Positions 1,439-54,345 of a stretch of DNA of 64,000 bases are shown piece by piece. This stretch comes from an uncultured Gammaproteobacteria bacterium. GTDB taxonomy: Bacteria > Patescibacteriota > Microgenomatia > Levybacterales > GWA1-39-11. Within the stretch, counting starts at the first letter, position 1. Each line of letters starts with the position of its first letter. The DNA lies in NCBI GenBank assembly GCA_964596415.1, contig CAZQSX010000001.1:37508-101507 (forward strand), in the 5' to 3' direction. A model generated the notes under the pieces. The model was not told where the DNA came from and searched no databases. It saw only the letters and a list, made by a program, of their open reading frames with translations. Position numbers and translations under genes: made by a program.

Positions 1439-2188
1439 CTAAGCTTTATTTGAGATTACAATTATTTGAGACTCACCAGTGATGGAGGTGAGCGTATTAT
1501 CTATTCTAGTAACAATACCTACAAAAAAGTATTTGATATATCTAATAGTTTTTCCTGCGAATGGATTAAGGAATAAAAAATTTCTTAGCATGCTTTCTTT
1601 TTTATAAATCTTTTTTATTTTAAATCCACTTTTTCTTAATTTATTCTGCAGTTCCTCAGCAGTATAGCGCCTCAAATGTCCAACTTCTATATCAAACTTT
1701 TTTGCATAGCCCAATTTGTATAATGGCGCATTTTTTGACGGAGTGGAAAGAAAAAGTATTCCACCTGGTTTTAATAGTTTATAAATCTTTTGAAGCGCTA
1801 ATTCATCGTCTGGGAGATGTTCGATAACTTCACTAAAAAATATTAAGTCATATTTTCCCGACGGAATTTTATTTGGAAAATCACAAACTTCAAAGTTTGC
1901 ATTTTTTAGTCCAATGATTTCTACAGATTTTTTAGAAGCATCAATTGCTTTTTTTGAAATATCTATTCCTTTAACTTTGTATCCTTTAGATGCAAGGTAG
2001 AGAGATATGGTTCCGCTTCCACAACCTATGTCTAGAATGGATTTTATATTTTTTGAAAGACAAGAGTTTAATATGGGAATGATATTTATATAAGTGAAAT
2101 TATTTGCACTAATTACTTTTTTTTGAGCAGATGATTTACTATGGTATTTTTCGTATAAACTATTTAACAACATTTTATTTATTGACAT
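1439..2188 (-). CDS. class I SAM-dependent methyltransferase
   Basis: Motif I LDIGCGSGTISLYLA, an acidic residue ending beta-2 (KGIDIS), and post-motif II KPGGILFLSTP. Confidence 0.8.
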   Translation of the reverse strand: MSINKMLLNSLYEKYHSKSSAQKKVISANNFTYINIIPILNSCLSKNIKSILDIGCGSGTISLYLASKGYKVKGIDISKKAIDASKKSVEIIGLKNANFEVCDFPNKIPSGKYDLIFFSEVIEHLPDDELALQKIYKLLKPGGILFLSTPSKNAPLYKLGYAKKFDIEVGHLRRYTAEELQNKLRKSGFKIKKIYKKESMLRNFLFLNPFAGKTIRYIKYFFVGIVTRIDNTLTSITGESQIIVISNKA

Positions 2189-2221: not shown

Positions 2222-4375
2222 ATGAAAATCATACTAAGATTATCTTCGATATTTTTTCTTTTATTACTTCTTTCTTTTTTCCCTGTTTCTGCGCATGCTG
2301 ATGATTTAACCAAATCATGGAACGTAACCACTAGTCTCCCCTACAGTCTAGCAAGCCACGTTGCATTTGGAAACGGGAAGAAAGCATTCGTATTAGACGG
2401 TTCTGCTCAAACTGGTAATAGTCATAATCAAATAATCTCAGCCATATCAGGAGTGAGCGGTGGGTTAAGTAACTGGAGTGTTGAAGCAAGTTTTCCTACT
2501 GCTCTGATATTTCATGCTATTGCTAGAAAAGATAATAATATTTACATTCTTGGAGGCAGAGAGGAAAATCCTGGGTCTGCAATGGATCATGTTAGTAAAG
2601 TTTTTGTAGCAAACATGAATTCGTTGGGTTCTTGGGGGCAGACATTTCCGTTGCCTAGCAATCGGTCATTGGGTGCTGCCGCAATTTCAGGTGATTACAT
2701 TTACTTTTCTGGGGGATTTAATACTACTGGTTATACCAATAAAGTATATGCTTCACATATTAAACCTGACGGTATGCTTGATCCCTGGTTTGAAGTGAGT
2801 GCTTTGCCGCTAACAAGAATTGGACATGGCATGATTGAAGACAATGGAAGTCTGTATGTGTTAGGAGGAGATAATGCGAATCAAGTATATAGAGCAACTG
2901 TTAACACAAGTAATGGGACTATTTCTTCATGGTCTCAAATATCTACATTGCCAGAGAAACTATATAGATCAGCTGTTATAAAAATAGGAAACCAGATATA
3001 TATGATCGGGGGTCATAATGGGACCTCTACGATTAATAAGATTTACTTCACAACTATAAACTCTGATGGTTCGCTTGGGTCTTGGCAGCTTTCAGCGAAT
3101 ACACTTCCTTTACCTGTTCAAGGGGGAGCGGTTGCACAAGCTGGAAAATATCTTTATCTTACTGGAGGATTTAGGTCCCCACCAGGCACATATCTTAACA
3201 GTGTTTATAAAACAGAGTTAAATATTTCAATAGAGCCTGATTTAAATGTTCCGCTTTTTAAACAAACGGATCCTGCATGGGGATCACAAGTATACGATTC
3301 AGCAAATATATGGCAACCAAATAATCCCGGGATTGATGCATCGGGATGCGCCCTTACTTCTGCTGCGATGGTATTTAATTATCATAAGATAACAAAATTA
3401 CCCGATGGATCAAGCCTTGATCCAAAATCTCTGAACATCTGGCTAAAAAACAACAACGGATATGTCGGGGGTGCTGTAAGTTGGGTAAGGTTATCGGCTC
3501 TGAGTGAGTTCGCTAAGTCTCAAAATTCTGCATTTACGTTTGATAGTCTGAAGTATTTCAGAGTAAATGAATTTAATGGAGAACAACTATTAAATGATTT
3601 AGAGCAAGGTATTCCTGGAATTCTTGAGGTTCCAGGGCATTTTATTGTGGGTAAGGGAGTTCAGAATGGAAAATTTTTAATTAATGATCCGTTTTATAAT
3701 AGAACTTCTCTTTCAGATTATGGGGACACGTTTCTTAGCTTAGGAAGATTTGTCCCAACAAATAGTGATGTATCTTATATTGAACTTGCTGTAGATGAAG
3801 GAGCAATTCTTTCAGTCAAAAATCAAAACGGAGAAGTTGTAGGAGAAGGATTTTTGCAAGAACCATATTCTGTTGATGGGCATCCTAGTTCTAATGTTGC
3901 GCGTTATTTTTACCTCGTTCCTGTGCCAGACAATGAAGAGCATACAATTATCGTTTCAGCTGGGGAAACAAAAGAATATACGCTTATTATTCGACTTCAA
4001 GGTGAAGATGGGGAGTTTACAGAAAAAACTGTAAAAGGCATAGTTGATTCAGGTTCCCACGATATTTTTTCTTTTAATTTCAGTAAGTCCGGTAATAATA
4101 AATCAGACATCCAACAAGAACTTTCTTTTGATTCTATTATTTCGGATCTGGAGTTATTGTATAACCTGGGTGAAATTTCAAATATTGGTATCTACATTAC
4201 ATTAAGGCAAAATATTTCAGTTTCACAACAGCTTTTATCCGTAAGTAAAGCAGCATCTACAGCGCATTTAAAAAACGTATTAAGCATACTAAAATCACAA
4301 AGAAAGAAATTTGTTTCAGAAACAGCTTATAAAATTTTATATCCGCAAGTTCAGCAACTCTTATCCACGATCTGA
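2222..4375 (+). CDS. secreted Kelch-repeat beta-propeller protein fused to a C-terminal C39-like (papain-fold) cysteine peptidase domain
   Basis: N-terminal signal peptide (LLLLSFFPVSAHA). Repeated Kelch blades: IYILGG, IYFSGG, LYVLGG, IYMIGG, LYLTGG. C-terminal C39-like catalytic residues: SGCALTSAAMVFNYH (Cys), PGHFIVGKG (His), LINDP (Asp). Confidence 0.75.
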   Translation: MKIILRLSSIFFLLLLLSFFPVSAHADDLTKSWNVTTSLPYSLASHVAFGNGKKAFVLDGSAQTGNSHNQIISAISGVSGGLSNWSVEASFPTALIFHAIARKDNNIYILGGREENPGSAMDHVSKVFVANMNSLGSWGQTFPLPSNRSLGAAAISGDYIYFSGGFNTTGYTNKVYASHIKPDGMLDPWFEVSALPLTRIGHGMIEDNGSLYVLGGDNANQVYRATVNTSNGTISSWSQISTLPEKLYRSAVIKIGNQIYMIGGHNGTSTINKIYFTTINSDGSLGSWQLSANTLPLPVQGGAVAQAGKYLYLTGGFRSPPGTYLNSVYKTELNISIEPDLNVPLFKQTDPAWGSQVYDSANIWQPNNPGIDASGCALTSAAMVFNYHKITKLPDGSSLDPKSLNIWLKNNNGYVGGAVSWVRLSALSEFAKSQNSAFTFDSLKYFRVNEFNGEQLLNDLEQGIPGILEVPGHFIVGKGVQNGKFLINDPFYNRTSLSDYGDTFLSLGRFVPTNSDVSYIELAVDEGAILSVKNQNGEVVGEGFLQEPYSVDGHPSSNVARYFYLVPVPDNEEHTIIVSAGETKEYTLIIRLQGEDGEFTEKTVKGIVDSGSHDIFSFNFSKSGNNKSDIQQELSFDSIISDLELLYNLGEISNIGIYITLRQNISVSQQLLSVSKAASTAHLKNVLSILKSQRKKFVSETAYKILYPQVQQLLSTI

Positions 4376-4464
4376 ATGTAAAGCACAAGTTATTAATTTT
4401 ATTAAGTTAAAAATCCATAATCCTATTCTTGATCTATTGCTTCCTTCTCCTGCATAATAAGTAT

Positions 4465-5292
4465 ATGTACGGGAAGTTTGTTATCAAAAAAAACGGTGAG
4501 CTAGAGCCATACAGTGAAGAAAAAGTAATTTCCTCCATGAATCGCGTTGGCGTTCCAAGCATTCTTCAGCCAGAAGTACTAGCTCACATACGGGATCGAT
4601 TTACGGGTGAATACATGGAAACAGATGAGTTGTTCAGGCACGTATTTGAGTTTTTAGAACCAAGAGATAAAAAATCAACGCTGAGGCTTAATTTGCGCCG
4701 GGCAATTTTTGAACTAGGTCCAACCGGGTTTCCGTTTGAAAAATATGTTGCAAGAATTTTTCAGTCCCAAGGATATAAGACTTTGGTTGGTTCATATTTA
4801 AATGGAGAGTGTGTTCGGCATGAAATAGATGTATTAATAGAAAAGGATGGGAAAAAAAGTAATGTGGAGGTGAAATTTCATAATGACGGAGGAATAAAAA
4901 CTGATATTCAGGTAGTTTTATATACATATGCTAGGTTTTTAGACATTTCAAAACAGAATGGCATATCTGAATGTTGGGTTATAACTAATACAAAACTTAC
5001 AACTGAGGCAATTACCTATGCAAAATGCAAAGGAATACACGTACTTGCTTGGAATTATCCAGGGGAAAATAATTTGCAAGATTTTGTGGAAAAACCAAAT
5101 ATGTACCCAATTACAACTATTACTGAGTTAACCCGTCAAGAAAAGCAGAGGCTTATTGAGGATAATATGATTCTAGCATCTGATCTTTTAAAAATTACCC
5201 CTGATGAAGTAAAAACATTTCCTCTTGTTAAGCGTCATAGATTAGTAAAGGCTATAAAATCCGCAGAAATTTTGTGTAATGGCGGGGTATAA
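4465..5292 (+). CDS. ATP-cone domain fused to an Mrr-like PD-(D/E)xK restriction-endonuclease-fold domain
   Basis: N-terminal KFVIKKNGELEPYSEEKVISSMNRVGV matches the ATP-cone consensus (V-KR-G--E-F---KI). The middle region GFPFEKYVARIFQSQGYKTL...HEIDVLIEKDGKKSNVEVK matches the Mrr_cat core (D...E-x-K). The ORF track starts at 4429; the ATG at 4465 (MYGKF) was chosen. Confidence 0.7.
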   Translation: MYGKFVIKKNGELEPYSEEKVISSMNRVGVPSILQPEVLAHIRDRFTGEYMETDELFRHVFEFLEPRDKKSTLRLNLRRAIFELGPTGFPFEKYVARIFQSQGYKTLVGSYLNGECVRHEIDVLIEKDGKKSNVEVKFHNDGGIKTDIQVVLYTYARFLDISKQNGISECWVITNTKLTTEAITYAKCKGIHVLAWNYPGENNLQDFVEKPNMYPITTITELTRQEKQRLIEDNMILASDLLKITPDEVKTFPLVKRHRLVKAIKSAEILCNGGV

Positions 5293-5345
5293 TTTTTACT
5301 CTACTTTTTATTGACAAGTGAAGTTTTTGACGGTAGTATAAGACA

Positions 5346-5813
5346 ATGAAGCTTACATTTCTTTTTAAAATTTTACCAGCACAATATGCACATGCTCATT
5401 GTGATATTCCATGCGGAATTTATGATCCAAACCAAGCGCAGCTTGCAGCTCATACCGTCTATCGTATGGTGCAGTTATTGGAGGAGCACCAGGAAAATGT
5501 TCATGATGTTGCTCGCATAACACATGTGAAAGAAGAACACGGAGAATTAGTTGAAGATGCACTCGGAACACTTGAAAATGATTATTTTAAGAAAGAAAAT
5601 TTTGAGAAATTTCCTGAGCTTAGGGATTTAATTTCTGATGCGGTACAGCTTTCAATAAAAACACGTCAAAAAGTTGATCTGCAACTTGCTGGAGAATTAG
5701 TTGAAAAAGTAATGCTTATTTCAGAAATCTTTTATAAGTCAAAAGGGGTTACTCCTGTTCGCATGAAATCTGTCTACCCTACAGAATTAGAATTTGTTAC
5801 TTATGCCGCATGA
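5346..5813 (+). CDS. sodN: nickel superoxide dismutase precursor (Ni-SOD)
   Basis: Leader MKLTFLFKILPAQYAHA is followed by the Ni-hook HCDIPCGIYDP, the diagnostic Ni-SOD N-terminus His-Cys-x-x-Pro-Cys-Gly-x-Tyr. Length is about 155 aa with a four-helix-bundle-like remainder. A promoter-like TTGACA-17-TAGTAT lies at 5321-5349. Confidence 0.85.
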   Translation: MKLTFLFKILPAQYAHAHCDIPCGIYDPNQAQLAAHTVYRMVQLLEEHQENVHDVARITHVKEEHGELVEDALGTLENDYFKKENFEKFPELRDLISDAVQLSIKTRQKVDLQLAGELVEKVMLISEIFYKSKGVTPVRMKSVYPTELEFVTYAA

Positions 5814-6073
5814 TTGTTAGACGTTTTAAAATTACTGGTCACAGTATGCAACCTACTTTTAGCCCTGGAGATCAAGTAATATCTTGGAAATTCTCAAAGA
5901 TAAAAAAAGGTGACGTTGTGGTTGTTCAATATCTTTCAAAACATATAATAAAGCGTGTTATACAAATATCAAAAGATTTCATTATTTTAACAGGAGATAA
6001 TAAAAAAGATAGTTTAAAAATTCCCCCAATCCCAAAACGTGATATTATTGGAAAGGTGATTCTAAAAATATAA
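5810..6073 (+). CDS. sodX: S26/S24-family signal-peptidase-like maturation protease for Ni-SOD (SodX)
   Basis: GHSMQPTF motif (Ser of the Ser/Lys dyad) and IKRVIQ (Lys). ATGA start/stop overlap with sodN. A Ni-SOD gene adjacent to an S26 peptidase gene is the classical arrangement. Confidence 0.75.
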   Translation: MIVRRFKITGHSMQPTFSPGDQVISWKFSKIKKGDVVVVQYLSKHIIKRVIQISKDFIILTGDNKKDSLKIPPIPKRDIIGKVILKI

Positions 6074-6075
6074 TT

Positions 6076-6591
6076 ATGCTTTTATATATTGCTGCGGCAA
6101 TTCTTATTATTTTATTACTTCTCCTTCTTTCCGCTGTCTGGCCACCTGATAGTCCATGGAGCCCTTGGTGGAAAACGTATAAAGAAGCAGGAATGGGCAT
6201 AATTACACTTGCAAACATTGATAAAAAAGATACGGTATATGAGTTAGGTTCAGGAGATGGCGAATTTCTTATTTTACTTGGAAAAAAAATAGGAGCAAAA
6301 AGTGTTGGCATAGAGATTGATCCATTACGGCATTATGTTGCAAAGCTTCGAGTAAAACTCGCTGGGCTTGAGAAGCATATTACCCTGAAAAAAAAATCAT
6401 TTCATGATGAAGACATTTCTCAAGCAACAGTTGTATATGTCTATTTAATTCCAAGAGTTTTAAAAAAAATTTTACCCAAACTTAAAAAAGAATTAAAAAA
6501 AGGAACAAGAGTTATATCATATAGATATCAAATGGATTTACCTCTTGTGAAAGAAGACAAAAAGCACAGATTATATCTTTACAAAGTCTAG
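6076..6591 (+). CDS. membrane-anchored class I SAM-dependent methyltransferase
   Basis: N-terminal TM helix (AAAILIILLLLLLSAVW), then motif I VYELGSGDGEF and acidic IEID. Confidence 0.7.
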   Translation: MLLYIAAAILIILLLLLLSAVWPPDSPWSPWWKTYKEAGMGIITLANIDKKDTVYELGSGDGEFLILLGKKIGAKSVGIEIDPLRHYVAKLRVKLAGLEKHITLKKKSFHDEDISQATVVYVYLIPRVLKKILPKLKKELKKGTRVISYRYQMDLPLVKEDKKHRLYLYKV

Positions 6592-6631
6592 CTTGCTAAA
6601 GCGTGATATACTTAAAAGTGGCAGCGTATAT

Positions 6632-6889
6632 ATGACTGAGTGCCAGAGCTGTGGGATGCCTCTATCCCTTGGCAATTATGGAACAAATGCAAGCGGTACC
6701 TATAATGATGAGTACTGCAGTATCTGTTTTCAGAAAGGACAATTTACTGATCCTGATTTAACTCTTCCTATTATGACTCAGATTATTGTTAACAGACTTG
6801 TTGGAGAAGGAATGAATGAAGATGAAGCCCGTATAAAAACTCAAACGATTGTTCCAACCCTCAAACGTTGGAGAAACGTTACGATTTAA
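6632..6889 (+). CDS. putative zinc-ribbon domain protein (Zn_ribbon_2-like)
   Basis: CQSCGMPL...GTNASGTYNDEYCSICFQKGQFT contains two CxxC pairs, typical of this small family. The start was taken at MTECQ (the ORF track starts at 6593). Confidence 0.6.
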   Translation: MTECQSCGMPLSLGNYGTNASGTYNDEYCSICFQKGQFTDPDLTLPIMTQIIVNRLVGEGMNEDEARIKTQTIVPTLKRWRNVTI

Positions 6890-7905
6890 ATACGTTTTTT
6901 TAAATTTAAAAATGCCCAACGGGCGGTATCTGCTACTTTTACAACTTCATACAGTTTTGTCATTACTACTAAATCATAGCTTCCCATAAATTCTGTAAGT
7001 GTTGCTCCGTATCCTTGTTTAAACTTGTGAAATCCATACCAAGGGTCTTGAGGGTTTGGGTTCTCAGAAAGTGCTCCCCACATGTCAAACTTTTTAAGAC
7101 CTATCTTTTTTCCCATTTTTATTGCTTCCCACATAATGAGATTGCTTGCCATTACATCTCTGTGTTCCCGTGAACTAGCACCGTATGGATAATATAATGT
7201 GTCCTTGAAAGAGAAAAGAACCCAAGAGGTCAGGATTTTTTTATCGTAAAATGCATGGAGTAGATGGTAGGAAAGATGATTCGTGTTTTGCGTTTGGTCT
7301 GTTGAGCAAAGAGTTTCCCAAAGCTTTTTGTGATATCTGGGAGTATGGGCATAGAATTTTTGACGTGTTGTTGTCTGCTCATACAGTTTTAAAAACTCCT
7401 TAAATCCTTTTTCTGAATTATCTTGCACTACTAAGACTTTGTGTTTTTGCGCGACTCTTATGTTATAGCGTGTTTTTGAGTGCATGTTTTTTAATAACTC
7501 ATCTTCTGAAGAGGTGAGATTAAGAATGAAAGAATACTTTGTGAATAACGGGTGAAAAGATTTTCGAATATCAAAATCTTTAATTTTTAATTCATTATTT
7601 TGAGTTACTTCATCCGGTTCAAGTTGGACATACACGCATTTGTGTTTTTTTGCTTGTTTCCGAACATCTTCTAGCATTTCTTTAGTAGGAAAATCAGATT
7701 TTGGAATATAGCCTATATAATAAGGAAGCTTTGGGACTTTATGGATAGTCATAGAGTAAGCGAACTTGAAATCATCACGTGCGCGTCTTACAACTTGGAT
7801 TCCTGTTGCGAGCCTAAATTCTCCCCACTCAAAAGATTGCAGCGGATGAGTTACAGCTTGATTAAATTTTTCTCGATCTTTTTCTGATACGTCAATAAAA
7901 TCCAT
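6886..7905 (-). CDS. FemAB-family peptidoglycan interpeptide-bridge aminoacyltransferase
   Basis: Length about 340 aa. FemAB-like segments: SKTRYNIRVAQKH, FKEFLKLYEQTTTRQKF, YYPYGASSREHRD. Confidence 0.7.
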   Translation of the reverse strand: MDFIDVSEKDREKFNQAVTHPLQSFEWGEFRLATGIQVVRRARDDFKFAYSMTIHKVPKLPYYIGYIPKSDFPTKEMLEDVRKQAKKHKCVYVQLEPDEVTQNNELKIKDFDIRKSFHPLFTKYSFILNLTSSEDELLKNMHSKTRYNIRVAQKHKVLVVQDNSEKGFKEFLKLYEQTTTRQKFYAHTPRYHKKLWETLCSTDQTQNTNHLSYHLLHAFYDKKILTSWVLFSFKDTLYYPYGASSREHRDVMASNLIMWEAIKMGKKIGLKKFDMWGALSENPNPQDPWYGFHKFKQGYGATLTEFMGSYDLVVMTKLYEVVKVADTARWAFLNLKKRI

Positions 7906-7907
7906 TA

Positions 7908-9794
7908 TTAGAGGAAATCTGGAGGTGCTTCTTCCAATTTCCTTTTATTATTATCTAACACTTCTTGTGGTAATTCAAAGATAAAACGAGATATGGAATT
8001 AGTTACGCGTTGTCCAAAGAATAATCTACGTTTTGCAAACGTGAGATACAGTTTTTCTTTTGCTCGTGTGATGCCCACATAGGCAAGTCTTCTTTCCTCT
8101 TCAATTGCAGATGAATCTAAAAGGGATTGTGCATGTGGGAAGAGACCTTCTTCCATGCCGATTAAAAAAACCATTTTAAATTCAAGTCCTTTTGCAGCAT
8201 GAATTGTCATGAAGGTTACAGCGTCTGGTTTGCCAAAATTTTTTGGCTGATCAGGCAAATGTTCTTGTTCAACGAGCGCAACATTTTCTAAAAATTGTGT
8301 AATATTTGGGAATTCAATCGCAACAGATCTAAGTTCCTTAATATTTTCAAGCCTATTTCTGTCTTCCGGATCCGATTCGTCATAAAGTGCAAGATAGCCA
8401 GTTTTTTCCAAAAGTAAATCAAGTAAGTCTATCGTTGGTTCTTCGTCAACATTCATGCCCTCTAATTCTTCAAGCAGTTTTGTAAAAATAGAAAACCTTC
8501 TTTTTCCAAGTTTCTCAATCCTTTTTTTTGCAACTGAATCTTTTCTGTTAACTAAAAAAGCAAGATAAGAAAGCGCATCTTTGATTTCTTTACGAGCATA
8601 AAATCTAGTTCCCCCAACTAATAAATACGGAATTGCGTGATGTATAAACGTTTCCTCAAGGGCACGTGACTGTGCATTCGTTCTATAAAGAACCGCAACG
8701 TCCGAGAAAGAAAAATGACGGTCATGATTTTTTTCCTCAAGTATTTTTTGTATGATAAATTCTGCCTCACTGTGTTCATTGTCTGCTAAAAATAAATCTA
8801 TATCTGCTCCGTAATTTTTATCAGTCCACAGTGCGAGAACGGGGTGAGATGAGTTATGAGAAATGACCGAATATGCAGCGTCTAGTATAGGTTTGGTAGA
8901 TCTATAATTCTGTGAGAGGGAAAGCTTTTTTGCGTTTGGAAAATCGATAATGAATTTTTCTAAATTTTTGTAGTCAGCTCCTCTAAAAGAGTAAATGCTT
9001 TGAGCAAAATCTCCCACAATGCAAATATTTTTAAAAACACCTGAGAGCATTTTTGTGAGTAAGTATTGTGGTTGATTTGTGTCTTGATATTCATCTACTA
9101 AAATATACCTAAATTGATTTTGATAATTTTCAAGAATTTGTTTTTGAGTTTTAAAAAGCTTTATAACAAGAAGCAGTAGGTCATCAAAATCAATTGCATC
9201 TGCTTCTTTTAACAGTTCTTGGTATAAAGGGTAAATTTTTGATATATGCTTTTGAAATTGTCCTCGTGCTAGTTCGGTATATGTTAAGGGATCAATCATT
9301 TGGTTTTTAATATCAGATATAGTGTGAAGTGCAGACCTTGGCTTAATATCTTTAATAGACAAGTCTAATTTTTGCATTGCTTGCTTTACGACCTCTAATT
9401 GATCTTCGCTATCATATATTCTGAAACTTGAAGAATAACCAACGTAGGCTGCATAGCGTCGTAAAATTCTTGCACAAAGTGAGTGAAAAGTTCCTACAAT
9501 CGGAAGATTTGAGTGTAGATTTAAATCGAGTAATGCTTTTTCAATTCTTTCCTTCATCTCAGAAGCGGCCTTATTTGTAAATGTGACCATGAGGATATTA
9601 TCTGCTTGAGCAGTTTTTTCAGTCATGAGGTATAAAACTTTATGAATAAGCACCTTTGTTTTGCCACTGCCTGCACCAGCAAGAATTATGATTGGTCCAT
9701 CTGTTTGCTCAACTGCTTTTGTTTGTTCCGGGTTCAGCGTATTGAGGATGTGATTCATATGTTGGTATAATAAGTGTACCTTAGAGTAACCCAT
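7908..9794 (-). CDS. UvrD/PcrA-type superfamily-1 DNA helicase
   Basis: Walker A AGAGSGKTKVL, motif II LVDEYQDTN, motif IV YRS, and a C-terminal GITRAKEKLYLT. Confidence 0.9.
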   Translation of the reverse strand: MGYSKVHLLYQHMNHILNTLNPEQTKAVEQTDGPIIILAGAGSGKTKVLIHKVLYLMTEKTAQADNILMVTFTNKAASEMKERIEKALLDLNLHSNLPIVGTFHSLCARILRRYAAYVGYSSSFRIYDSEDQLEVVKQAMQKLDLSIKDIKPRSALHTISDIKNQMIDPLTYTELARGQFQKHISKIYPLYQELLKEADAIDFDDLLLLVIKLFKTQKQILENYQNQFRYILVDEYQDTNQPQYLLTKMLSGVFKNICIVGDFAQSIYSFRGADYKNLEKFIIDFPNAKKLSLSQNYRSTKPILDAAYSVISHNSSHPVLALWTDKNYGADIDLFLADNEHSEAEFIIQKILEEKNHDRHFSFSDVAVLYRTNAQSRALEETFIHHAIPYLLVGGTRFYARKEIKDALSYLAFLVNRKDSVAKKRIEKLGKRRFSIFTKLLEELEGMNVDEEPTIDLLDLLLEKTGYLALYDESDPEDRNRLENIKELRSVAIEFPNITQFLENVALVEQEHLPDQPKNFGKPDAVTFMTIHAAKGLEFKMVFLIGMEEGLFPHAQSLLDSSAIEEERRLAYVGITRAKEKLYLTFAKRRLFFGQRVTNSISRFIFELPQEVLDNNKRKLEEAPPDFL

Positions 9795-23451: not shown

Positions 23452-25212
23452 ATGAAAAACAACATTAGGAATTTTGCCATCATTGCTCACGTGGATCACG
23501 GGAAGTCTACCCTTGCTGATAGGCTCCTTGTTTTAACGGGGACTATTCGTCGTGAAGATATAGGTGAGCAGTTCTTAGATTCCAGTGAAATTTCCAGAGA
23601 ACGAGGTATTACCATAAAGCTTGCTCCGGTTCGGATGAATTATAGCTTGAACGGGCAAGAGTATATATTAGATTTAATTGATACTCCTGGGCATGTGGAC
23701 TTTTCCTATGAAGTTGTAAGAACGCTTTATGCATGCGAAGGTGCAGTTTTACTCGTGGATGCAACAAAGGGCATTCAAGCTCAAACTGTTGCCAATCTTA
23801 ATTTTGCAAAAAAACTTAACCTAACAATTGTTCCTGCAATTAATAAAATTGACCTTCCTATGGCACGAGTAGACGCCGTTGAGAAAACGATGGTTGATAG
23901 TCTTGGCTTTGAGAAAAGTGAGATCCATTATATTTCTGCAAAAACAGGTGATGGAGTTGAAGACTTACTAACTGCGGTAATCGATAAAATTCCGCCGCCT
24001 AAAGTGTCTGAAAATTCAAAAACGCAAGCTTATATTTTTGACTCAAAATATGATGAGCACAGGGGAATTGTTATCTTCGTTCGGCTTGAGTCTGGTGAAA
24101 TTAAGAAGGGTGATGAAATATTATTTTTAGCAGATAAGACTTCAGCGCAGATTATGGATATAGGCTTTATGAAACCCACCTTTTATTCAAGTGAAAAATT
24201 ATCTGCAGGAGAAGTGGGATACGTTATAACAAACATTAAAGATATTACGCAAGCAAAAGTTGGAGATACCATGACGCTATTAAAAGATCCAGCAGAACCG
24301 CTTCCTGGGTTTTTACCCATGAAACCGTTTGTATATTTATCTATATATCCAAGCTCGAATTCAGAATTTCAGAGCTTACGAAAAGCAATTTATAAATTAA
24401 AGCTTAATGATGCTGCGCTTACTATTTCACCTGAAATGTCTACGATTTTTGGACCAGGATTCAGATGTGGATTTTTAGGACTTTTGCATTCTCAAATTGT
24501 AATTGAGAGGCTTGAAAGGGAAGAAGGAATTGAGGTGTTTACGGCTCCTCCTACCATAGAATATAAAATAGATGGAAAAAGCATAACATCACCAAAAGAT
24601 TTTAATAATGGAGCATTTGAAATGCTTGAACCTTTTATATTGGGTGAAATCTATACTCCCGGTGATTATTTGGGGAACTTACTTGAGATAATAAACAGCA
24701 GGCGAGGTGTACAGAAAAATGTAGAGTATTTTGAAAATTTAGTAAAACTTACATTTGAAATGCCACTTGCTTCAGTGGTCTATGATTTTTATGACAAAAT
24801 AAAATCTGCTTCGAGTGGATTTGCATCTTTTGATTATGAAATAAAAGAATTTAGGCCTTCAAAGCTTGTCAGAGTAGATATATTTGTAAACGAGCAAAAC
24901 ATTCCAGAATTATCATTTATAGTTCACGAGTCAGAGGTAGAGTCGTTCAGCAGAAGAATTGTTGAGATATTAAGTAAGGAAATACCCAGGCATAATTTTG
25001 TGGTTGCAGTGCGTGCGCAAGTAGGAGGGAAAATAATAGCATCAGAAAAAATCTCAGCTTTGAGAAAAGATGTTACTGCAAAATTATATGGAGGGGATAG
25101 AACAAGAAAAGATAAGCTTTTAGAAGCTCAGAAAAAAGGTAAGGCTAAAATGAAAACGATCGGAAATGTGAATGTGCCAAAGGAGGCATTTTTGAGTGTT
25201 TTGAAAGTTTAG
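23452..25212 (+). CDS. lepA: elongation factor 4 (LepA)
   Basis: G1 AHVDHGKSTL, G3 DTPGH, G4 NKID, and a LepA-specific C-terminal domain. 586 aa. Confidence 0.9.
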   Translation: MKNNIRNFAIIAHVDHGKSTLADRLLVLTGTIRREDIGEQFLDSSEISRERGITIKLAPVRMNYSLNGQEYILDLIDTPGHVDFSYEVVRTLYACEGAVLLVDATKGIQAQTVANLNFAKKLNLTIVPAINKIDLPMARVDAVEKTMVDSLGFEKSEIHYISAKTGDGVEDLLTAVIDKIPPPKVSENSKTQAYIFDSKYDEHRGIVIFVRLESGEIKKGDEILFLADKTSAQIMDIGFMKPTFYSSEKLSAGEVGYVITNIKDITQAKVGDTMTLLKDPAEPLPGFLPMKPFVYLSIYPSSNSEFQSLRKAIYKLKLNDAALTISPEMSTIFGPGFRCGFLGLLHSQIVIERLEREEGIEVFTAPPTIEYKIDGKSITSPKDFNNGAFEMLEPFILGEIYTPGDYLGNLLEIINSRRGVQKNVEYFENLVKLTFEMPLASVVYDFYDKIKSASSGFASFDYEIKEFRPSKLVRVDIFVNEQNIPELSFIVHESEVESFSRRIVEILSKEIPRHNFVVAVRAQVGGKIIASEKISALRKDVTAKLYGGDRTRKDKLLEAQKKGKAKMKTIGNVNVPKEAFLSVLKV

Positions 25213-25673
25213 GATTTTAATTTTGCTGCTTCTTGTATGTAAGCTTTTGCATGGTTAAGGATGTTACTAGTTTGCCTTAGCTCAACGTGTGATAATGGCC
25301 TTCTTGCGCCCTGCATTGTACGATTATTCTTTCTTGCTATAATTTCATCTCTATAGCCTTCTCGTAGGGTAGCAACCTCTTCTTGAACGTCAAGAGTGGT
25401 TGTACCTATCTCAATAGAAATGGTAGGATTGCCAATCTCAAAAGAATTGTTAATCCTAACTGCTCTTTTTAGCAAAATATACCATTCGACTTTTTGTGTT
25501 TCTATGTCAGATGTTAAAGGGATGAGTACGGTATCAGCCCTAGACTTATCAGAAGTTTTTGTTTCCCTTTGTGGTGGTTGCGAAGATCGAATTATGTGAT
25601 CTGCATAGTCTAGTAACTCTGCAGGAGTTGGAGCTGGGAGATATCGATCTCTTTGCTCAAGTGCTTGTGACAT
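25209..25673 (-). CDS. hypothetical protein (154 aa)
   Basis: Intact ORF convergent with lepA (4-nt overlap). No motif recognised. Confidence 0.45.
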   Translation of the reverse strand: MSQALEQRDRYLPAPTPAELLDYADHIIRSSQPPQRETKTSDKSRADTVLIPLTSDIETQKVEWYILLKRAVRINNSFEIGNPTISIEIGTTTLDVQEEVATLREGYRDEIIARKNNRTMQGARRPLSHVELRQTSNILNHAKAYIQEAAKLKS

Positions 25674-38922: not shown

Positions 38923-40014
38923 ATGTCAAGTGAGGTTCCATTTTATGACCCGGGTCAAAGTTATGAAGACAATTATGAAAATGGTCCTTTTGGTTCTTTT
39001 TCTGATGGTCGAAAAATTGAAGATCCTCTTCGTCCACCACAGCATGAGTTTATGGGACACAAGGTAAATCTTCCTTTTGGAATTCCTGCAGGTCCACTTC
39101 TCAATAGTAATTATATTAAGGCAGCTTTTGAAAAAGGGTTTGATGTTGCGGTATATAAAACAGTACGAGCTGGGGAGTTTCCATGTCATCCTTTTCCAAA
39201 TGTTTTAGGGGTACATCTAGATGGTGATTTAACTATGCAGCGAGCGAACGAACCAATTTTTGCAGATACAAATTATACAAACCCAATATCTATTACAAAT
39301 TCTTTTGGCGTTCCGTCTAAAGATCCCTCAGTTTGGCAGGAGGATGCAAGACGGGCTATGAGTTTTGCAGGTGAAGGGCAGGTAATGGTACTAAGTTTTA
39401 TGGGAACTGTAAAACCAAATCAAACAGCAGAAGAATTTGTTCAGGATTTTGTACGAACAGCAGAACTATCAAAAGAAACAGGCGCAAGAATTCTCGAAGG
39501 GAATTTATCTTGTCCCAATATCGGTAATGAAGGCTTGGTTTGTTATAACTTGGACATGACTGAAAGGGTTACGCATGCGACTCGAGATAAAGTTGGGGAC
39601 ATTCCACTTATTTGGAAAGTGGGTTATTTTGAGTCTGATGCTGATCTTAAAAGGCTTGCGAAAATTATGCATGATACACACTCTGGAATTTCAGTTATTA
39701 ATACGATTCCTGCAACGATTGTTGACATAAATGGAAATCAAGCGCTTCCTGGAAGCCCAGCCAGACTTAAAAGTGGTGTCTGTGGCTCTGTTATTAAATG
39801 GGCGGGAATGGATATGGTAAAAAGGCTTGATAGAATTAGAAAAGAAGATGGGTATGAATTTTCAATAGACGGAGTTGGTGGAGTAACAACTGTTCAAGAT
39901 TATTTTGATTATAAAGAGGCAGGGGCTGATGCGGTTTTCTCAGCAACGGGAGCAATGTGGCATCCGAATCTTGCGCTTGGAATAAAAAGAGAAGTTAAAA
40001 AAAGAGCAGCTTAA
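38923..40014 (+). CDS. pyrD: dihydroorotate dehydrogenase-like (class 1 DHOD/DHPD family) flavoenzyme; alternative start at 39052
   Basis: NLPFGIPAGPL...GFDVAVYKTV, catalytic-loop LSCPN, and a TIM-barrel FMN-binding pattern (GVGGV...DAVFSATGAMW). An N-terminal ~43-aa extension is present if the first Met is used. Adjacent to pyrE. Confidence 0.65.
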   Translation: MSSEVPFYDPGQSYEDNYENGPFGSFSDGRKIEDPLRPPQHEFMGHKVNLPFGIPAGPLLNSNYIKAAFEKGFDVAVYKTVRAGEFPCHPFPNVLGVHLDGDLTMQRANEPIFADTNYTNPISITNSFGVPSKDPSVWQEDARRAMSFAGEGQVMVLSFMGTVKPNQTAEEFVQDFVRTAELSKETGARILEGNLSCPNIGNEGLVCYNLDMTERVTHATRDKVGDIPLIWKVGYFESDADLKRLAKIMHDTHSGISVINTIPATIVDINGNQALPGSPARLKSGVCGSVIKWAGMDMVKRLDRIRKEDGYEFSIDGVGGVTTVQDYFDYKEAGADAVFSATGAMWHPNLALGIKREVKKRAA

Positions 40015-40634
40015 GACTTTTTACTTTCCAAAAACTTTTTTCCATGCCCCACAGTTGTGTTTATAGGGATCCCTTTTTTGCAAAGTGGACAGTTTCTTGC
40101 TTCCCATGTTTCCACGAATAATTCTCCCAAACTCATAAACGGGGCGCCTACTGTATCCCCATTTACTGTTTTTGGACTTCTATTTACCATGACAATTACT
40201 GAAACTACTCTTCCGCCGGCATTTTTTACTGTGGTTACAACTTTCTTAACAGATCCGCCGGTTGTAGTTAAGTCTTCAATTACCAGTACATTTTTATCCT
40301 TTACATACTTATCATACCCGCGGGTAAATACCTGGTTTTTATCTGCATCTTTTTCTGTGTAAATTCCCAGAATTTCTTTATTTTTTAAAGAAGAAAGGTG
40401 ATAGGCAGTCCACGTAGATAGAATAATTCCGCCAAGTGCTGGTGCTACTACTACATCTATGTCTAAATCTTTTGCGCGTTTTGCAAATAGCATTCCCACC
40501 CTTGATGTTTCCTCAGTGTGCGGATAGAGCGCATCTTTATTAATATAAATTGGCATGTGAAGACCAGAGGTTCCCACAAAATGGTCATCTACTAAAACTG
40601 CACCAACACTTTTTAAGATATCCAAAACTTCCAT
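40011..40634 (-). CDS. pyrE: orotate phosphoribosyltransferase
   Basis: PRPP-binding loop VLVIEDLTTTGGSVKKVV. Type I PRTase length. Confidence 0.8.
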   Translation of the reverse strand: MEVLDILKSVGAVLVDDHFVGTSGLHMPIYINKDALYPHTEETSRVGMLFAKRAKDLDIDVVVAPALGGIILSTWTAYHLSSLKNKEILGIYTEKDADKNQVFTRGYDKYVKDKNVLVIEDLTTTGGSVKKVVTTVKNAGGRVVSVIVMVNRSPKTVNGDTVGAPFMSLGELFVETWEARNCPLCKKGIPINTTVGHGKKFLESKKS

Positions 40635-52086: not shown

Positions 52087-54345
52087 ATGTATAAAAAACT
52101 GCCCATTTTTATAACCTGTTTTATATTTGTAAGCATACTTTTCTTTGGATTTGTCAAAAGTGTTTTCGCTCAGACAACAACAACTTCTGTTACTCCAACG
52201 CCTGAATTAATACAAGAAATTCAGCAAAGTTTTCCAGGTCTTCCTATAGATATTCCAGATTTAACTAATCCATCTGGAGGGCTTCCGATTGGAACAAGTC
52301 CAGTTGCTGAGGGCACTTGGGTTTCTGATTCAAATGTAACGTTTGTTGGAAAAACCGCATCTCGGTCAGGAGATTTTCTTGATTGGACTTTAAGAAATTA
52401 TGATTGGGCATGTGCTACAAAAAATGCAAATGGGTCATGTTCTAACCAAGGAAATCCACTTGTTGGGTTTTGGGCTTTAATTAGAAATATTGTGTACGCA
52501 CTTCTTATAGCAGTTGTACTTGTTGCAGCATTTGTCATGATTATAACTCGCGGAAGAAGCATTACCGTTATGCGTTTTATTCCTCGATTTATCTTTATTC
52601 TTGTTCTTGTGACTCTTTCGTATTCCTTGATACAGTTTATTTATCAAATAACAGATATTATAACTGGTTTTTTTCTTAGAGTAAGCGGATCTCTTATTTC
52701 AACAAAAGATTTAATTTTTATAGGATTTAACTATCAGACTTTTGAGGGTTTAAGGCTAGCTGGTTCAAAGTATGACGAGTCTGCGTTTATAACGCTTTTA
52801 TTAGTCAGGCTTACTGCCATAACGTATTATGTTATGACAGGGATTCTTCTTATTAGAAAAATTATTCTTTGGTTTTTTATAGTACTTTCCCCTATTTTCC
52901 CTCTTTTATTTTTCTTTAGGCCCGTAAGAAATACAGGAAAAATTTGGATAGGAGAATTTTTTAGATGGTTATTATATGCGCCGCTTTTCGCAATCTTTTT
53001 GCATGGATTGGTTGTTTTATGGAGTAGTGGAAGTCCTGATAAACCAGGAATTCCACTTGCTTTTGATTTGACAAGTCCAGGGCGCATTCCAGGTGTTGAG
53101 GCAAATGTTGTATATCCAACTGCCGTGAACATATTAATTGGTGGTCCAGGTCAGCAAATTGGAATTTATAATTCAGTTAATCTTCAGGACACATTTGCGC
53201 TTTATGTTGTTGCTCTTCTTATGCTTTGGGTTGTGATACTTCTTCCATTTATCTTACTTAAAATCTTCTTAGACTATCTGACTAATATTTCGCTTAAGGA
53301 TAATGTAACGCTTCAGAAGATGTGGGATAGGGGTATGGCGCCATTTAATCCAAAACCACCTTCTCCTGCGACCCCACCAATAGTTCCACCACCTGCTACA
53401 ACAGGGCTTGCAAAGTCTTTGCCATTTGCAGCAGGAATTTCTAGAACATTAAATCAAACAAAAAACATCACAGAAAATAAGACTGTTAATCAAGCTATGT
53501 CTAGTCCTGTAAATACGCAAATTCTCCAACTCTCAAATCTCTCAATTCCAAAAATGAGAGATATCGCAAAGTTTGAGACTTCTATGGTTTCAAAAGATAC
53601 AACTCGTCAACACGAAGTTAATAGATTAAAGACTTCACTTTCAAGAATTGCGAATCCAAGCTCAGTTCAAAGCGCATCAGAAAGAGATCGTTACACGCAG
53701 GTGAAACATCAGTTGACACAAGAAAAACAAAAAGGTAACGCTTTGGCTTCATCTATTCTTTCCGCAGCAAACACAACAAATCAGGCTTCCCGCGCTCATG
53801 TACCTGGGCAAAAAATTGCAGCCGTAGCAAATCTTCCAACTGTTAATAGGGTTCAGCAGGTTTCACTTGAAGATTATGAGGAGGTTAGAAAAATGTGGGT
53901 TGAAACATATCAATCATCAGAGCCCCCAACTGATCTAGCAGGAAAACAGGCAAATCGTGAAGAATGGATTAAGGGTGATATTGATAAGATTAATCAAGCA
54001 ATTACGCTTCTATCATCTATTGATCCAAGTCGTTCACAAGAAGGGATGGATATGGTTTCAAATATTTTGCCATTTCTAATGGTTGGAGGATTTTCAAAAA
54101 CTGAAGTTATAGCATACCTAAAAGCAAAACTTGAAGCAGCAAAGCAGGTAATGTCAGACACTAATAAAAAGAAAGAGGATGAGGAGGGTATGGTTGAAAG
54201 AGCCACTGGAACAACAACCGCTGAAAAACATATGACAATGGAAGCAGAAGCAAAAATTCCAGATGAAGAAGCGCCTAAAAAAACATTTGATACCCCTGAA
54301 GATGGTCAAGCAAAAATTGACGATTTGAGAAAAACAGGAGTGTAG
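52087..54345 (+). CDS. signal-peptide-bearing polytopic membrane protein (6 TM) with a long C-terminal hydrophilic domain; VirB6/TrbL-like topology
   Basis: SP MYKKLPIFITCFIFVSILFFGFVKSVFA, a Thr-rich N-terminal exodomain, six hydrophobic helices between about aa 125 and 400, and a C-terminal domain of about 350 aa rich in polar residues. Confidence 0.45.
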   Translation: MYKKLPIFITCFIFVSILFFGFVKSVFAQTTTTSVTPTPELIQEIQQSFPGLPIDIPDLTNPSGGLPIGTSPVAEGTWVSDSNVTFVGKTASRSGDFLDWTLRNYDWACATKNANGSCSNQGNPLVGFWALIRNIVYALLIAVVLVAAFVMIITRGRSITVMRFIPRFIFILVLVTLSYSLIQFIYQITDIITGFFLRVSGSLISTKDLIFIGFNYQTFEGLRLAGSKYDESAFITLLLVRLTAITYYVMTGILLIRKIILWFFIVLSPIFPLLFFFRPVRNTGKIWIGEFFRWLLYAPLFAIFLHGLVVLWSSGSPDKPGIPLAFDLTSPGRIPGVEANVVYPTAVNILIGGPGQQIGIYNSVNLQDTFALYVVALLMLWVVILLPFILLKIFLDYLTNISLKDNVTLQKMWDRGMAPFNPKPPSPATPPIVPPPATTGLAKSLPFAAGISRTLNQTKNITENKTVNQAMSSPVNTQILQLSNLSIPKMRDIAKFETSMVSKDTTRQHEVNRLKTSLSRIANPSSVQSASERDRYTQVKHQLTQEKQKGNALASSILSAANTTNQASRAHVPGQKIAAVANLPTVNRVQQVSLEDYEEVRKMWVETYQSSEPPTDLAGKQANREEWIKGDIDKINQAITLLSSIDPSRSQEGMDMVSNILPFLMVGGFSKTEVIAYLKAKLEAAKQVMSDTNKKKEDEEGMVERATGTTTAEKHMTMEAEAKIPDEEAPKKTFDTPEDGQAKIDDLRKTGV

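Follow-up and report, generated by a model that had tools for sequence, protein, structure and literature searches.

The window, by which we mean the whole 64,000-nucleotide stretch of DNA analysed, carries a genuine nickel superoxide dismutase (Ni-SOD) gene, sodN, with a leader-cutting protease encoded next to it. These are the first two of four open reading frames on the + strand (Table 1); all four had been claimed in the original prediction, and each lies where it was placed. The translation of sodN has the claimed leader followed directly by HCDIPCGIYDP, and the stop codon of sodN and the start codon of sodX share positions 5810-5813 in the ATGA overlap that had been noticed. The two further genes were said to follow without gaps. 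They are indeed co-oriented with sodN and sodX, but 2 nt separate sodX from the methyltransferase gene, and a longer gap precedes the Zn-ribbon gene. In relatives of the Zn-ribbon protein the homology does not begin until query residue 15-17, and near-identical contigs, whose genes were called independently, have a protein of 85 aa, so that the start is most likely ATG 6632; this leaves 40 nt after the methyltransferase gene. The GC content of the operon (0.34-0.35) agrees with that of the window.

Table 1. Features of the sodN locus, in window coordinates.
Feature	Position	Strand	Description
sodN	5346-5813	+	155-aa Ni superoxide dismutase precursor; TIGR02753 and PF09055 above cut-offs
sodX-like peptidase gene	5810-6073	+	87 aa; PF10502 and PF00717 above cut-offs
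Methyltransferase gene	6076-6591	+	171 aa, class I SAM, aKMT/DOT1-like type
Zn-ribbon ORF	6593-6889	+	Likely gene 6632-6889 from ATG 6632, 85 aa; PF12674
Promoter-like site TTGACA-17 nt-TAGTAT	5311-5339	+	Sigma-70-type pattern, putative function
Leader peptide	5346-5396	+	17 aa, MKLTFLFKILPAQYAHA, Ala-x-Ala end
Ni-hook HCDIPCGIY	5397-5423	+	His18, Cys19, Cys23 = Ni ligands; Tyr26 = gate residue
C-terminal β-hairpin extension	5751-5807	+	Residues 136-154; outside Streptomyces structures and Pfam/TIGRFAM models

The promoter-like site is the best + strand match (10/12) in a scan of positions 4300-8000, and its pattern suggests that it would function as a sigma-70-type promoter. The same layout, TTGAC(A/T)-17-TAxxAT and then 6-12 nt to the ATG, stands upstream of sodN in seven related loci (L002, L003, L005, L007, L008, L011, and L014). 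In the window the end of the -10 box lies only 6 nt from the sodN ATG, and the gene lacks a Shine-Dalgarno sequence; the sodN mRNA is therefore probably leaderless or nearly so. We considered whether this might be a special feature of sodN and rejected the idea. A Shine-Dalgarno-like core precedes only 4 of the 44 window ORFs, so its lack is a genome-wide trait.

The SodN precursor and its adjoining peptidase

The core of the original prediction was a Ni-SOD precursor beside an S26-type peptidase in a CPR-type bacterium, and family models, residue conservation, fold, and synteny agree on it. SodN scores 115.8 bits against the NCBIfam sodN equivalog TIGR02753 (cut-off 90) and 109.4 bits against PF09055 (cut-off 25; E-value 2.3e-31), a family match well past chance. 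A phmmer search of the PDB matches it to 1q0d and 1t6u with an E-value of about 1e-19, the alignment beginning exactly at His18. When SodN is aligned to Streptomyces SodN, the check proposed with the original prediction, HCDIPCGIY at residues 18-26 corresponds residue for residue to residues 1-9 of mature NiSOD (1q0d). Residues H18, C19, D20, I21, P22, C23, G24, and Y26 are invariant in a 47-sequence alignment (A1), and the Ni-hook is intact in 14 of 14 related genomic loci. All 14 also have the junction A-(H/F/Y/L)-A followed by HCD, with leaders of 15-19 aa. By analogy with Streptomyces, the leader would be cleaved after Ala17.

The AlphaFold2 (AF2) model of SodN (pLDDT 90.8) has the canonical four-helix bundle. 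Foldseek superposes this model on 1t6u, 1q0d, 3g50, 1t6i, and related NiSOD chains with TM scores of 0.92-0.95 and rmsd of 1.0-2.3 Å, while the next match outside the NiSODs has an E-value of only 0.18. The likeness to the enzymes of Streptomyces coelicolor and S. seoulensis (1t6u, 1q0d) and their SodX extends to the gene pair itself, a leader-bearing precursor with an adjoining S26 peptidase, and to the small residue at leader position -1. The Ni-hook HCDxPCGxY is identical at every liganding position, although overall identity is about 32%. Nickel binding, superoxide dismutase activity, and a hexameric assembly of SodN would be expected from the Streptomyces and cyanobacterial paradigm.

The 87-aa peptidase has both elements of the SodX-like Ser/Lys dyad that had been claimed for it, GHSMQPT (Ser12) and IKRV (Lys48). 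Since a word-indexed homologue search gave only 6 proteins, its conservation was judged from genomic loci. Across 20 orthologues S12, M13, P15, K48, G62, N64, and S68 are invariant, as are the S26 boxes SM..P, K(R/K), and G(D/E)N..(D/E)S; all 20 match the SodX model (best E-value 2.4e-16). The peptidase shares with the type I signal peptidases of family S26 (LepB, SpsB) the Ser-Met, Lys-Arg, and Gly-Asp-Asn boxes and an Ala-x-Ala type of substrate site. It differs from them in having no membrane anchor and no extra domain, and in being dedicated, as judged by its context, to one cytoplasmic substrate. It also differs from Streptomyces SodX in that it falls below the cut-off of the SodX equivalog (TIGR02754), so the name SodX rests on context and motifs. 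These properties describe a minimal, anchor-less core of an S26 Ser/Lys-dyad enzyme, a SodX-like maturation protease that by the Streptomyces and cyanobacterial paradigm would cleave SodN.

Leader, neighbours, and history of the locus

One may ask whether the leader is instead a secretion signal, the enzyme being exported and cut by signal peptidase, with the adjoining S26 protein an ordinary signal peptidase I and no dedicated cytoplasmic SodX involved. In favour of this, the leader combines a basic residue with a hydrophobic stretch and ends in an Ala-x-Ala site. The peptidase scores just above the cut-off of the signal peptidase I model TIGR02227 (47.6 bits versus 47) and under that of the SodX equivalog (42.2 bits versus 63.25; E-value 8e-11), and its profile matches signal peptidase I structures, SpsB and LepB being its best solved relatives. 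However, the hydrophobic stretch is short and broken by Lys8 (LTFLFKILP), and no transmembrane segment is predicted anywhere in the 87 aa of the peptidase. The two models are also matched very differently: that of SodX end to end (positions 2-88 of 90), that of signal peptidase I over positions 20-85 of 162 only. Finally, sodX adjoins sodN in 14 of 14 related loci, an adjacency as strict as would be expected of a dedicated partner. We consider export extremely unlikely. In Streptomyces, the equivalent NiSOD leader, of 14 aa as against 17 in SodN of the window, is removed in the cytoplasm.

A related question is whether the methyltransferase and the Zn-ribbon protein are working parts of a four-gene Ni-SOD operon, for example with the four-cysteine protein delivering nickel as a metallochaperone and the methyltransferase modifying SodN or SodX. 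Both proteins are what they were predicted to be. The methyltransferase has one predicted N-terminal transmembrane segment, and the Zn-ribbon protein has two CxxC pairs (CQSC...CSIC), matches Pfam Zn_ribbon_2 (PF12674) with 77.9 bits (cut-off 22.5), and could in principle bind metal; we found no solved relative of it in the PDB. The genes share one strand with tight spacing, the two short gaps given above, and all four are called together on the independent near-identical contigs. The methyltransferase gene follows sodX in 10 of the 14 loci. Against this, sodN-sodX is kept without it in L004, L010, L012, and L014; sodX directly abuts FemAB in L004 and L014, and in L010 and L012, where the context is different, only sodN and sodX are still paired. 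The Zn-ribbon gene occurs in L001-L003, the three closest of the 14 loci, and nowhere else among them. The grouping of these two genes with the dismutase operon holds in this species only, and as no more than physical linkage (the genes are present in 10/14 and 3/14 loci).

The relatives of the methyltransferase likewise argue against a shared function. Its PDB matches are 5bxy, 5fa8, and 5jwj, with E-values from 5e-21 to 2e-19 (5jwj, 1.7e-19), and the nearest of its relatives with a solved structure are aKMT, a protein-lysine methyltransferase of archaea, and a chain that was deposited under the name RNA methyltransferase; neither has a link to metalloenzyme maturation. With aKMT (5jwj, 5fa8) it shares the class I SAM core and the E-x-G-x-G-x-G motif over about 125 residues (E-values 2e-19 to 5e-20). 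It differs in carrying the N-terminal transmembrane segment and in scoring 88.1 bits against the aKMT-type protein-lysine model NF041081, below the NCBIfam cut-off of 200; against DOT1 it scores 28.8 bits (cut-off 23). By sequence comparison the relationship to aKMT is one of family level only. A functional four-gene operon is improbable in our judgment. The methyltransferase gene is probably a co-transcribed neighbour outside SOD maturation, and the Zn-ribbon gene is a lineage-restricted neighbour. A reading of the region as a defence island, suggested by an Mrr-like nuclease upstream and a methyltransferase match to PADLOC mad2, was also rejected: the matches are at the domain level only, and the synteny of the upstream gene is kept in the manner of a core gene.

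The original prediction called Ni-SOD in a CPR-like context unusual, and this part of it does not stand, given abundant close homologues, a conserved Levyibacteriota block, and earlier publications. A homologue search with SodN returned 1,924 sequences; the best 120 of these are 59-99% identical to it, and the named ones among them are "superoxide dismutase, Ni" of Candidatus Levybacteria or Patescibacteria. Ni-SOD has been described in a Saccharibacteria genome (PMC6031116). Patescibacteria NiSODs form at least 3 clusters, with transfers to Woesearchaea, according to the available passages of a preprint on SodN phylogeny (bioRxiv 10.1101/2021.01.12.426412). The window SodN belongs to the Patescibacteria/Chloroflexota-type clade described there, that of the NiSODs of Patescibacteria MAGs, of which related copies occur in Woesearchaeal/Nanoarchaeal MAGs (compare L012). 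The term sodX is absent from the available text of that preprint, and its available passages contain neither the Ala17/His47 signature and hairpin described below nor the Levyibacteriota locus or in-place allele replacement. Among groundwater Patescibacteria MAGs, the share with SOD genes is 83% for oxic-enriched and 66% for anoxic-enriched ones (bioRxiv 10.1101/2021.07.28.454184). Because the sodN-sodX pair is common in Levybacteria and already published, the find is real but ordinary. It is one more case of the known fact that many CPR/Patescibacteria, Levybacteria included, carry Ni-SOD with its own protease, and it adds little to the published idea of "anaerobe-type" CPR organisms meeting oxygen.

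Could the operon nevertheless have come to this one genome by recent horizontal transfer, as the word unusual would imply? The NiSOD phylogeny is rich in horizontal transfer, with Patescibacteria clusters nested within Chloroflexota sequences (bioRxiv 10.1101/2021.01.12.426412, available passages), and sodN alleles in Levyibacteriota can be discordant with their flanks: between L004 and L014, UvrD is 89% identical and SodN 45%, which indicates in-place replacement of the sodN allele. However, sodN-sodX lies at the same locus in most recovered loci of Levyibacteriota, and most Levyibacteriota loci also share the flanks Kelch/C39, ATP-cone-Mrr, FemAB, UvrD, and TIM. The composition of the operon is unremarkable, its flanks in the window are free of mobile-element genes, and the same lineage has many relatives at 60-82% identity. 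A recent arrival is very unlikely; what is seen agrees with a locus of long residence in which the allele is replaced from time to time. We read the locus, with a probability of about 0.9, as a two-gene sodN-sodX cassette belonging to a Levyibacteriota (Patescibacteria/CPR) bacterium and residing there in a conserved block of the chromosome.

Proposed mechanism, SodN subtype, and nickel supply

A mechanism can be proposed on the Streptomyces and cyanobacterial model. Transcription would most likely start at the sigma-70-type promoter abutting the sodN ATG, and sodN, sodX, and, in this species, the two unrelated downstream genes would probably form one transcript. SodN would be made as an inactive 155-aa precursor, and SodX, a cytoplasmic peptidase using Ser12 and Lys48, would cut after Ala-His-Ala17 to leave His18 as the new N-terminus. 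The N-terminal amine, the Cys19 backbone amide, the thiolates of Cys19 and Cys23, and the His18 imidazole would then fold round nickel as the Ni-hook, and cycling between Ni(II) and Ni(III) would dismutate superoxide. The likely role of sodN is tolerance of episodic exposure to oxygen or superoxide in an otherwise fermentative small-genome organism.

In its second sphere and its C-terminus, SodN departs from the Streptomyces enzyme. A hydrogen-bond triad of His1, Glu17, and Arg47 has a second-sphere role in the studied Streptomyces enzyme (PMC5722923), and is to be read as a feature of that enzyme, not of the whole NiSOD family. In SodN of the window the positions of Glu17 and Arg47 are taken by Ala34 and His65, and the triad is not conserved by any of three comparisons (the structure-chain alignment, A1, and cluster representatives). 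Among 92 full-length NiSOD cluster representatives, the [A/S/G/D]17/His47 state is found in 43 and Glu/Arg in 34. Those 43 and the whole Levybacteria SodN group are without the Glu17/Arg47 triad, and a subset adds a β-hairpin. In SodN of the window this conserved C-terminal hairpin, which the Streptomyces enzyme does not have, is about 22 aa long. In the AF2 model the hairpin strands span residues 136-141 and 149-154 (pLDDT about 92), beyond residues 133 and 135, where the Pfam and TIGRFAM matches stop; P137, R139, S142, T146, and V151 are invariant in A1. No such hairpin was found in any of the 34 Glu17/Arg47-type cluster representatives examined. SodN thus belongs to a non-actinobacterial subtype with Ala34/His65, an invariant His36 (mature position 19), and the C-terminal β-hairpin.

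To our knowledge, no enzyme of the Ala17/His47-type NiSOD subtype has been assayed so far, and what is known to us of NiSOD structure and mechanism was all learned from the Streptomyces-type enzyme with Glu17/Arg47. It is tempting to speculate, and we do so only tentatively, that we are dealing with a biochemically unstudied subtype (Ala/Ser17, His47, invariant His19, and hairpin) in which a second sphere of another kind, based on histidine, tunes the axial His1. Subunit packing or nickel loading could be altered by the hairpin, which might suit the enzyme to small-genome anaerobes without dedicated nickel chaperones. The sodN alleles, moreover, appear to be swapped in place among close Levyibacteriota. 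Expressing one such enzyme would test the need for the His1 hydrogen-bond network in catalysis. With 43 of the 92 full-length representatives lacking the Streptomyces-type triad, enzymology is the useful remainder of this analysis.

As to the supply of nickel, it had been noted that the window shows no nickel transporter, and this holds among the ten multi-pass membrane ORFs (at least 3 predicted transmembrane segments) that were scanned, none of which is a NiCoT, HupE/UreJ, or CbiM/Nik importer. They encode DUF2298, a weak DUF2079-like match, MurJ, glycosyltransferases, UbiA, and a weak TrbL-like match, and two have no Pfam match. Nor is a Fe/Mn or Cu/Zn superoxide dismutase found among about 20 further soluble window ORFs. 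In six of the related loci (L004, L013, L001, L014, L010, and L012) other genes are inserted beside sodN, none of them for a nickel transporter or chaperone. These inserts encode a NUDIX hydrolase, an EamA transporter, a dihydroorotate-dehydrogenase-like protein, and an OmpR-type regulator, along with TrxB-like, T4SS coupling-protein, and recombinase-like genes.

Genes, motifs and proposed maturation

By its genes, motifs, predicted fold and gene linkage, the feature is a correctly identified sodN-sodX cassette (Ni superoxide dismutase, NiSOD, precursor gene plus adjacent S26-type peptidase gene) typical of Levyibacteriota. The ORF list gives four co-oriented genes exactly where the original prediction placed them (see the table). 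SodN starts with MKLTFLFKILPAQYAHA, a 17-amino acid leader, followed by the Ni-hook (HCDIPCGIYDP), and the ATGA overlap of the sodN stop and sodX start is seen in the DNA (5810-5813). SodN reaches 115.8 bits with the NCBIfam sodN equivalog, whose cut-off is 90, and matches Pfam Sod_Ni (E 2.3e-31). Aligned to Streptomyces NiSOD, His18 falls on residue 1 of the mature chains 1q0d and 1t6u (E about 1e-19), and all Ni-liganding and gate residues are kept in the structure-chain alignment. The AlphaFold model, built on 47 relatives (pLDDT 90.8), is a four-helix bundle; Foldseek superposes it on crystal structures of NiSOD (TM 0.92-0.95, rmsd 1.0-2.3 Å), the next unrelated match being at E 0.18.

The second protein has the anticipated GHSMQPT and IKRV motifs and exceeds the Pfam cut-offs for Peptidase_S26 and Peptidase_S24. 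It covers the SodX equivalog model end to end at 42.2 bits, below the cut-off of 63.25. Among 20 aligned orthologues, Ser12, Met13, Pro15, Lys48, Gly62, Asn64 and Ser68 are invariant; judged by sequence these are the S26 catalytic boxes, with Ser12 and Lys48 as the expected Ser/Lys dyad. A profile search of solved structures matched the SpsB/LepB signal peptidases, and no membrane anchor is predicted in the peptidase. By analogy with the Streptomyces paradigm, this soluble enzyme would cut the precursor after Ala-His-Ala17. Ni would then be held by the freed amine and the imidazole of His18, the amide of Cys19 and the thiolates of Cys19 and Cys23, and would cycle between Ni(II) and Ni(III), conferring superoxide dismutase (SOD) activity.

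The third protein is, as proposed, a membrane-type class I SAM methyltransferase, with a single N-terminal hydrophobic (TM) segment preceding an aKMT-like core. Its nearest solved structures are an entry deposited as an RNA methyltransferase (5bxy) and aKMT, a protein-lysine methyltransferase of archaea (E 5e-21 to 2e-19); PADLOC gives a domain-level match to mad2 of the methylation-associated defence system (42.7 bits). The fourth protein is indeed a Zn-ribbon protein (Pfam Zn_ribbon_2), with no solved relative among the known structures searched. Its start is most likely ATG 6632 (85 amino acids): relatives align from residue 15-17 of the long ORF onwards, and genes called independently on near-identical contigs are 85 amino acids long. 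This start would leave 40 nt behind the methyltransferase, so that the four genes share an orientation but are not gapless as first described.

The promoter layout upstream of sodN is repeated in at least seven related loci. No Shine-Dalgarno (SD) sequence precedes sodN in the window. This is a genome-wide trait here and not particular to sodN, since an SD-like core lies within 25 nt of the start in 4/44 ATG-start ORFs of the window. Many window ORFs have a TATAAT-like box a few nucleotides before the ATG. These patterns suggest that translation in this organism often starts without an SD sequence or on leaderless mRNAs.

Coordinates of features in the window and, where named, in related loci
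Feature	Position	Strand	Remarks
Kelch/C39 protein	2222-4375	+	717 aa; N-terminal hydrophobic segment, Kelch β-propeller repeats, C39-like peptidase domain
ATP-cone-Mrr protein	4465-5292	+	ATP-cone and Mrr-type restriction-endonuclease fold; immediately upstream of sodN
Sigma-70-type promoter candidate	5311-5339	+	TTGACA-17-TAGTAT; sequence scan; ends 6 nt before sodN ATG
sodN	5346-5813	+	155 aa; ORF list
sodX-like peptidase	5810-6073	+	87 aa; ORF list
Methyltransferase	6076-6591	+	171 aa; ORF list
Zn-ribbon ORF	6593-6889	+	98 aa as listed; ORF list
Multi-pass membrane protein	52087-54345	+	752 aa
ORFs with TATAAT-like box, SD-less (examples)	upstream of 509, 1439-2188(-), 4465, 25209-25673(-), 40011-40634(-), 47898, 48531
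sodN, locus L004	6001-6450		'LGTLENDYFK' subtype
sodN, locus L014	6001-6498		'VRIIWGDYFK' subtype
sodN-sodX surroundings, locus L010	5006-9613 and 10758-11627		sodN-sodX directly 3' of thioredoxin-reductase-like gene
sodN-sodX, locus L012	3478-4223		DATBWR010000015.1

A distinct NiSOD subtype

In Streptomyces NiSOD, His1 is hydrogen-bonded in a triad with Arg47 and with Glu17 from a neighbouring subunit (PMC5722923). The window SodN differs, having Ala34 and His65 at these positions; His36 and His65 are invariant in close relatives. When 1.84 billion cluster representatives were searched exhaustively, 575 NiSOD clusters emerged, and the best 150 of these provided 92 full-length, hook-bearing representatives. 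At Streptomyces positions 17/47, 34 of the 92 are Glu/Arg (none with the C-terminal hairpin described below), 43 are Ala, Ser, Gly or Asp/His (hairpin in at least 10), and 15 are mixed (hairpin in 4). The window SodN has a C-terminal extension of 22 amino acids that forms a highly confident β-hairpin in the AlphaFold model (residues 136-154). P137, R139, S142, T146 and V151 are invariant in the 47-sequence SodN alignment, and the hairpin falls beyond the Pfam and TIGRFAM models. The window SodN belongs to a distinct NiSOD subtype. We know of no assay for any enzyme of this subtype, which is probably the 'Chloroflexota/Patescibacteria' deep clade of a published phylogeny (bioRxiv 10.1101/2021.01.12.426412).

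Two variants may be mentioned. A ~12-residue insertion ('...SSxEPPFxERKKIISQ...') in the loop between helices 1 and 2 (near residues 48-52 of the window SodN) occurs in L006, L007, L009, L011, L013 and L014, a mosaic pattern touching some alleles of both SodN subtypes seen among the related loci and not others. The homologue P0041 (224 amino acids), from one 2,775-bp JGI contig, looks like a fusion of SodN and SodX in which the peptidase follows straight after SodN '...YKTKGVT' and the hairpin is lost; the fusion could be genuine or a sequencing or assembly deletion.

A shared locus with probable allele exchange

Scanning one genome per species, we found 14 loci (L001-L014) with SodN relatives of 43-71% identity; their informative titles are Candidatus Levyibacteriota or 'Patescibacteria group' MAGs. 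By tblastn of the window genes, the peptidase directly follows sodN in 14/14 loci and the methyltransferase comes next in 10/14 (missing from L004, L010, L012 and L014), while the Zn-ribbon gene is confined to the three closest (L001-L003). Most loci share a block of Kelch/C39, ATP-cone-Mrr-like, sodN-sodX, FemAB, UvrD and triose-phosphate isomerase genes. The cassette has other surroundings in L010 and L012, where of the window's genes sodN and sodX alone stay together. The functional unit is therefore this pair; of the four genes originally grouped, the methyltransferase and Zn-ribbon genes are lineage neighbours.

Inheritance of the cassette is both vertical and horizontal, on different scales. 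The sodN-sodX locus is old and common to relatives, and its composition is unremarkable within the window. Across loci, however, sodN alleles are out of step with their flanking genes. Between L004 and L014, close relatives that carry two SodN subtypes, identity is 89% for UvrD, 73% for FemAB, 58% for SodX and 45% for SodN, and SodN and UvrD identities correlate weakly across loci (Spearman 0.31). The low SodN identity relative to UvrD and the weak correlation point to in-place replacement of sodN alleles, with what looks from the sequences like a breakpoint near sodN/sodX. This agrees with the HGT-prone NiSOD history in the published phylogeny (bioRxiv 10.1101/2021.01.12.426412).

Several neighbourhoods deserve comment. 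In L010, genes 3' of the pair resemble a type IV secretion coupling-protein ATPase and, by eye, a tyrosine recombinase, which hints at a mobile element. L012, from a MAG labelled as a DPANN archaeon ('Candidatus Nanoarchaeia archaeon'), has a FemAB-like gene nearby and, unlike the Levyibacteriota loci, a canonical AAGGAGG Shine-Dalgarno before the pair. It fits the onward transfer from Patescibacteria to Woesearchaea reported in that phylogeny, and is also consistent with mis-binning. Among L001, L002, L004, L005, L008, L010 and L011 are MAGs titled 'uncultured Gammaproteobacteria bacterium'; they have Levyibacteriota gene order, with UvrD, FemAB and SodN 52-72% identical to those of the window, and their titles have the look of placeholder names, wrongly assigned in a bulk submission. 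The Kelch/C39 gene is kept upstream in several Levyibacteriota loci. The ATP-cone-Mrr protein holds its position in 7/14 loci and has a weak PADLOC match to the ZorD nuclease domain only; we considered it as a defence-island gene, but it behaves like a positionally conserved core gene.

Occurrence and nickel supply

The view that NiSOD is unusual in a CPR-like genome does not hold. A protein search with SodN returned 1,924 homologues, the best 120 being 59-99% identical and, where named, 'superoxide dismutase, Ni [Candidatus Levybacteria / Patescibacteria]'. NCBI already has the identical SodN, on a 113-kb contig, and four independent sequencing runs contain near-identical operons. A Saccharibacteria genome carrying nickel SOD was described in 2018 (PMC6031116), and the NiSOD phylogeny places at least three clusters from Patescibacteria inside Chloroflexota sequences (bioRxiv 10.1101/2021.01.12.426412). 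Among groundwater Patescibacteria MAGs, SOD genes occur in 83% of the oxic-enriched and 66% of the anoxic-enriched ones (bioRxiv 10.1101/2021.07.28.454184). The cassette is an ordinary feature already covered by database annotation and published phylogeny; what is modestly new is the second sphere with Ala17 and His47, the C-terminal β-hairpin and the evidence for in-place allele exchange.

In line with the original note, no Ni transporter was found in the window: its ten multi-pass membrane ORFs all fall outside the known Ni-uptake families. A scan of ~20 other window ORFs gave no Fe/Mn or Cu/Zn SOD, and no transporter or chaperone adjoins sodN in the related loci inspected. These results cover the 64-kb window and cannot settle Ni supply or other SODs for the whole genome. 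One of the window's proteins, the multi-pass membrane protein at 52 kb, weakly resembles TrbL/VirB6 (21 bits, a sub-threshold score); with the large ORFs downstream it may belong to a cluster for type IV secretion or competence.
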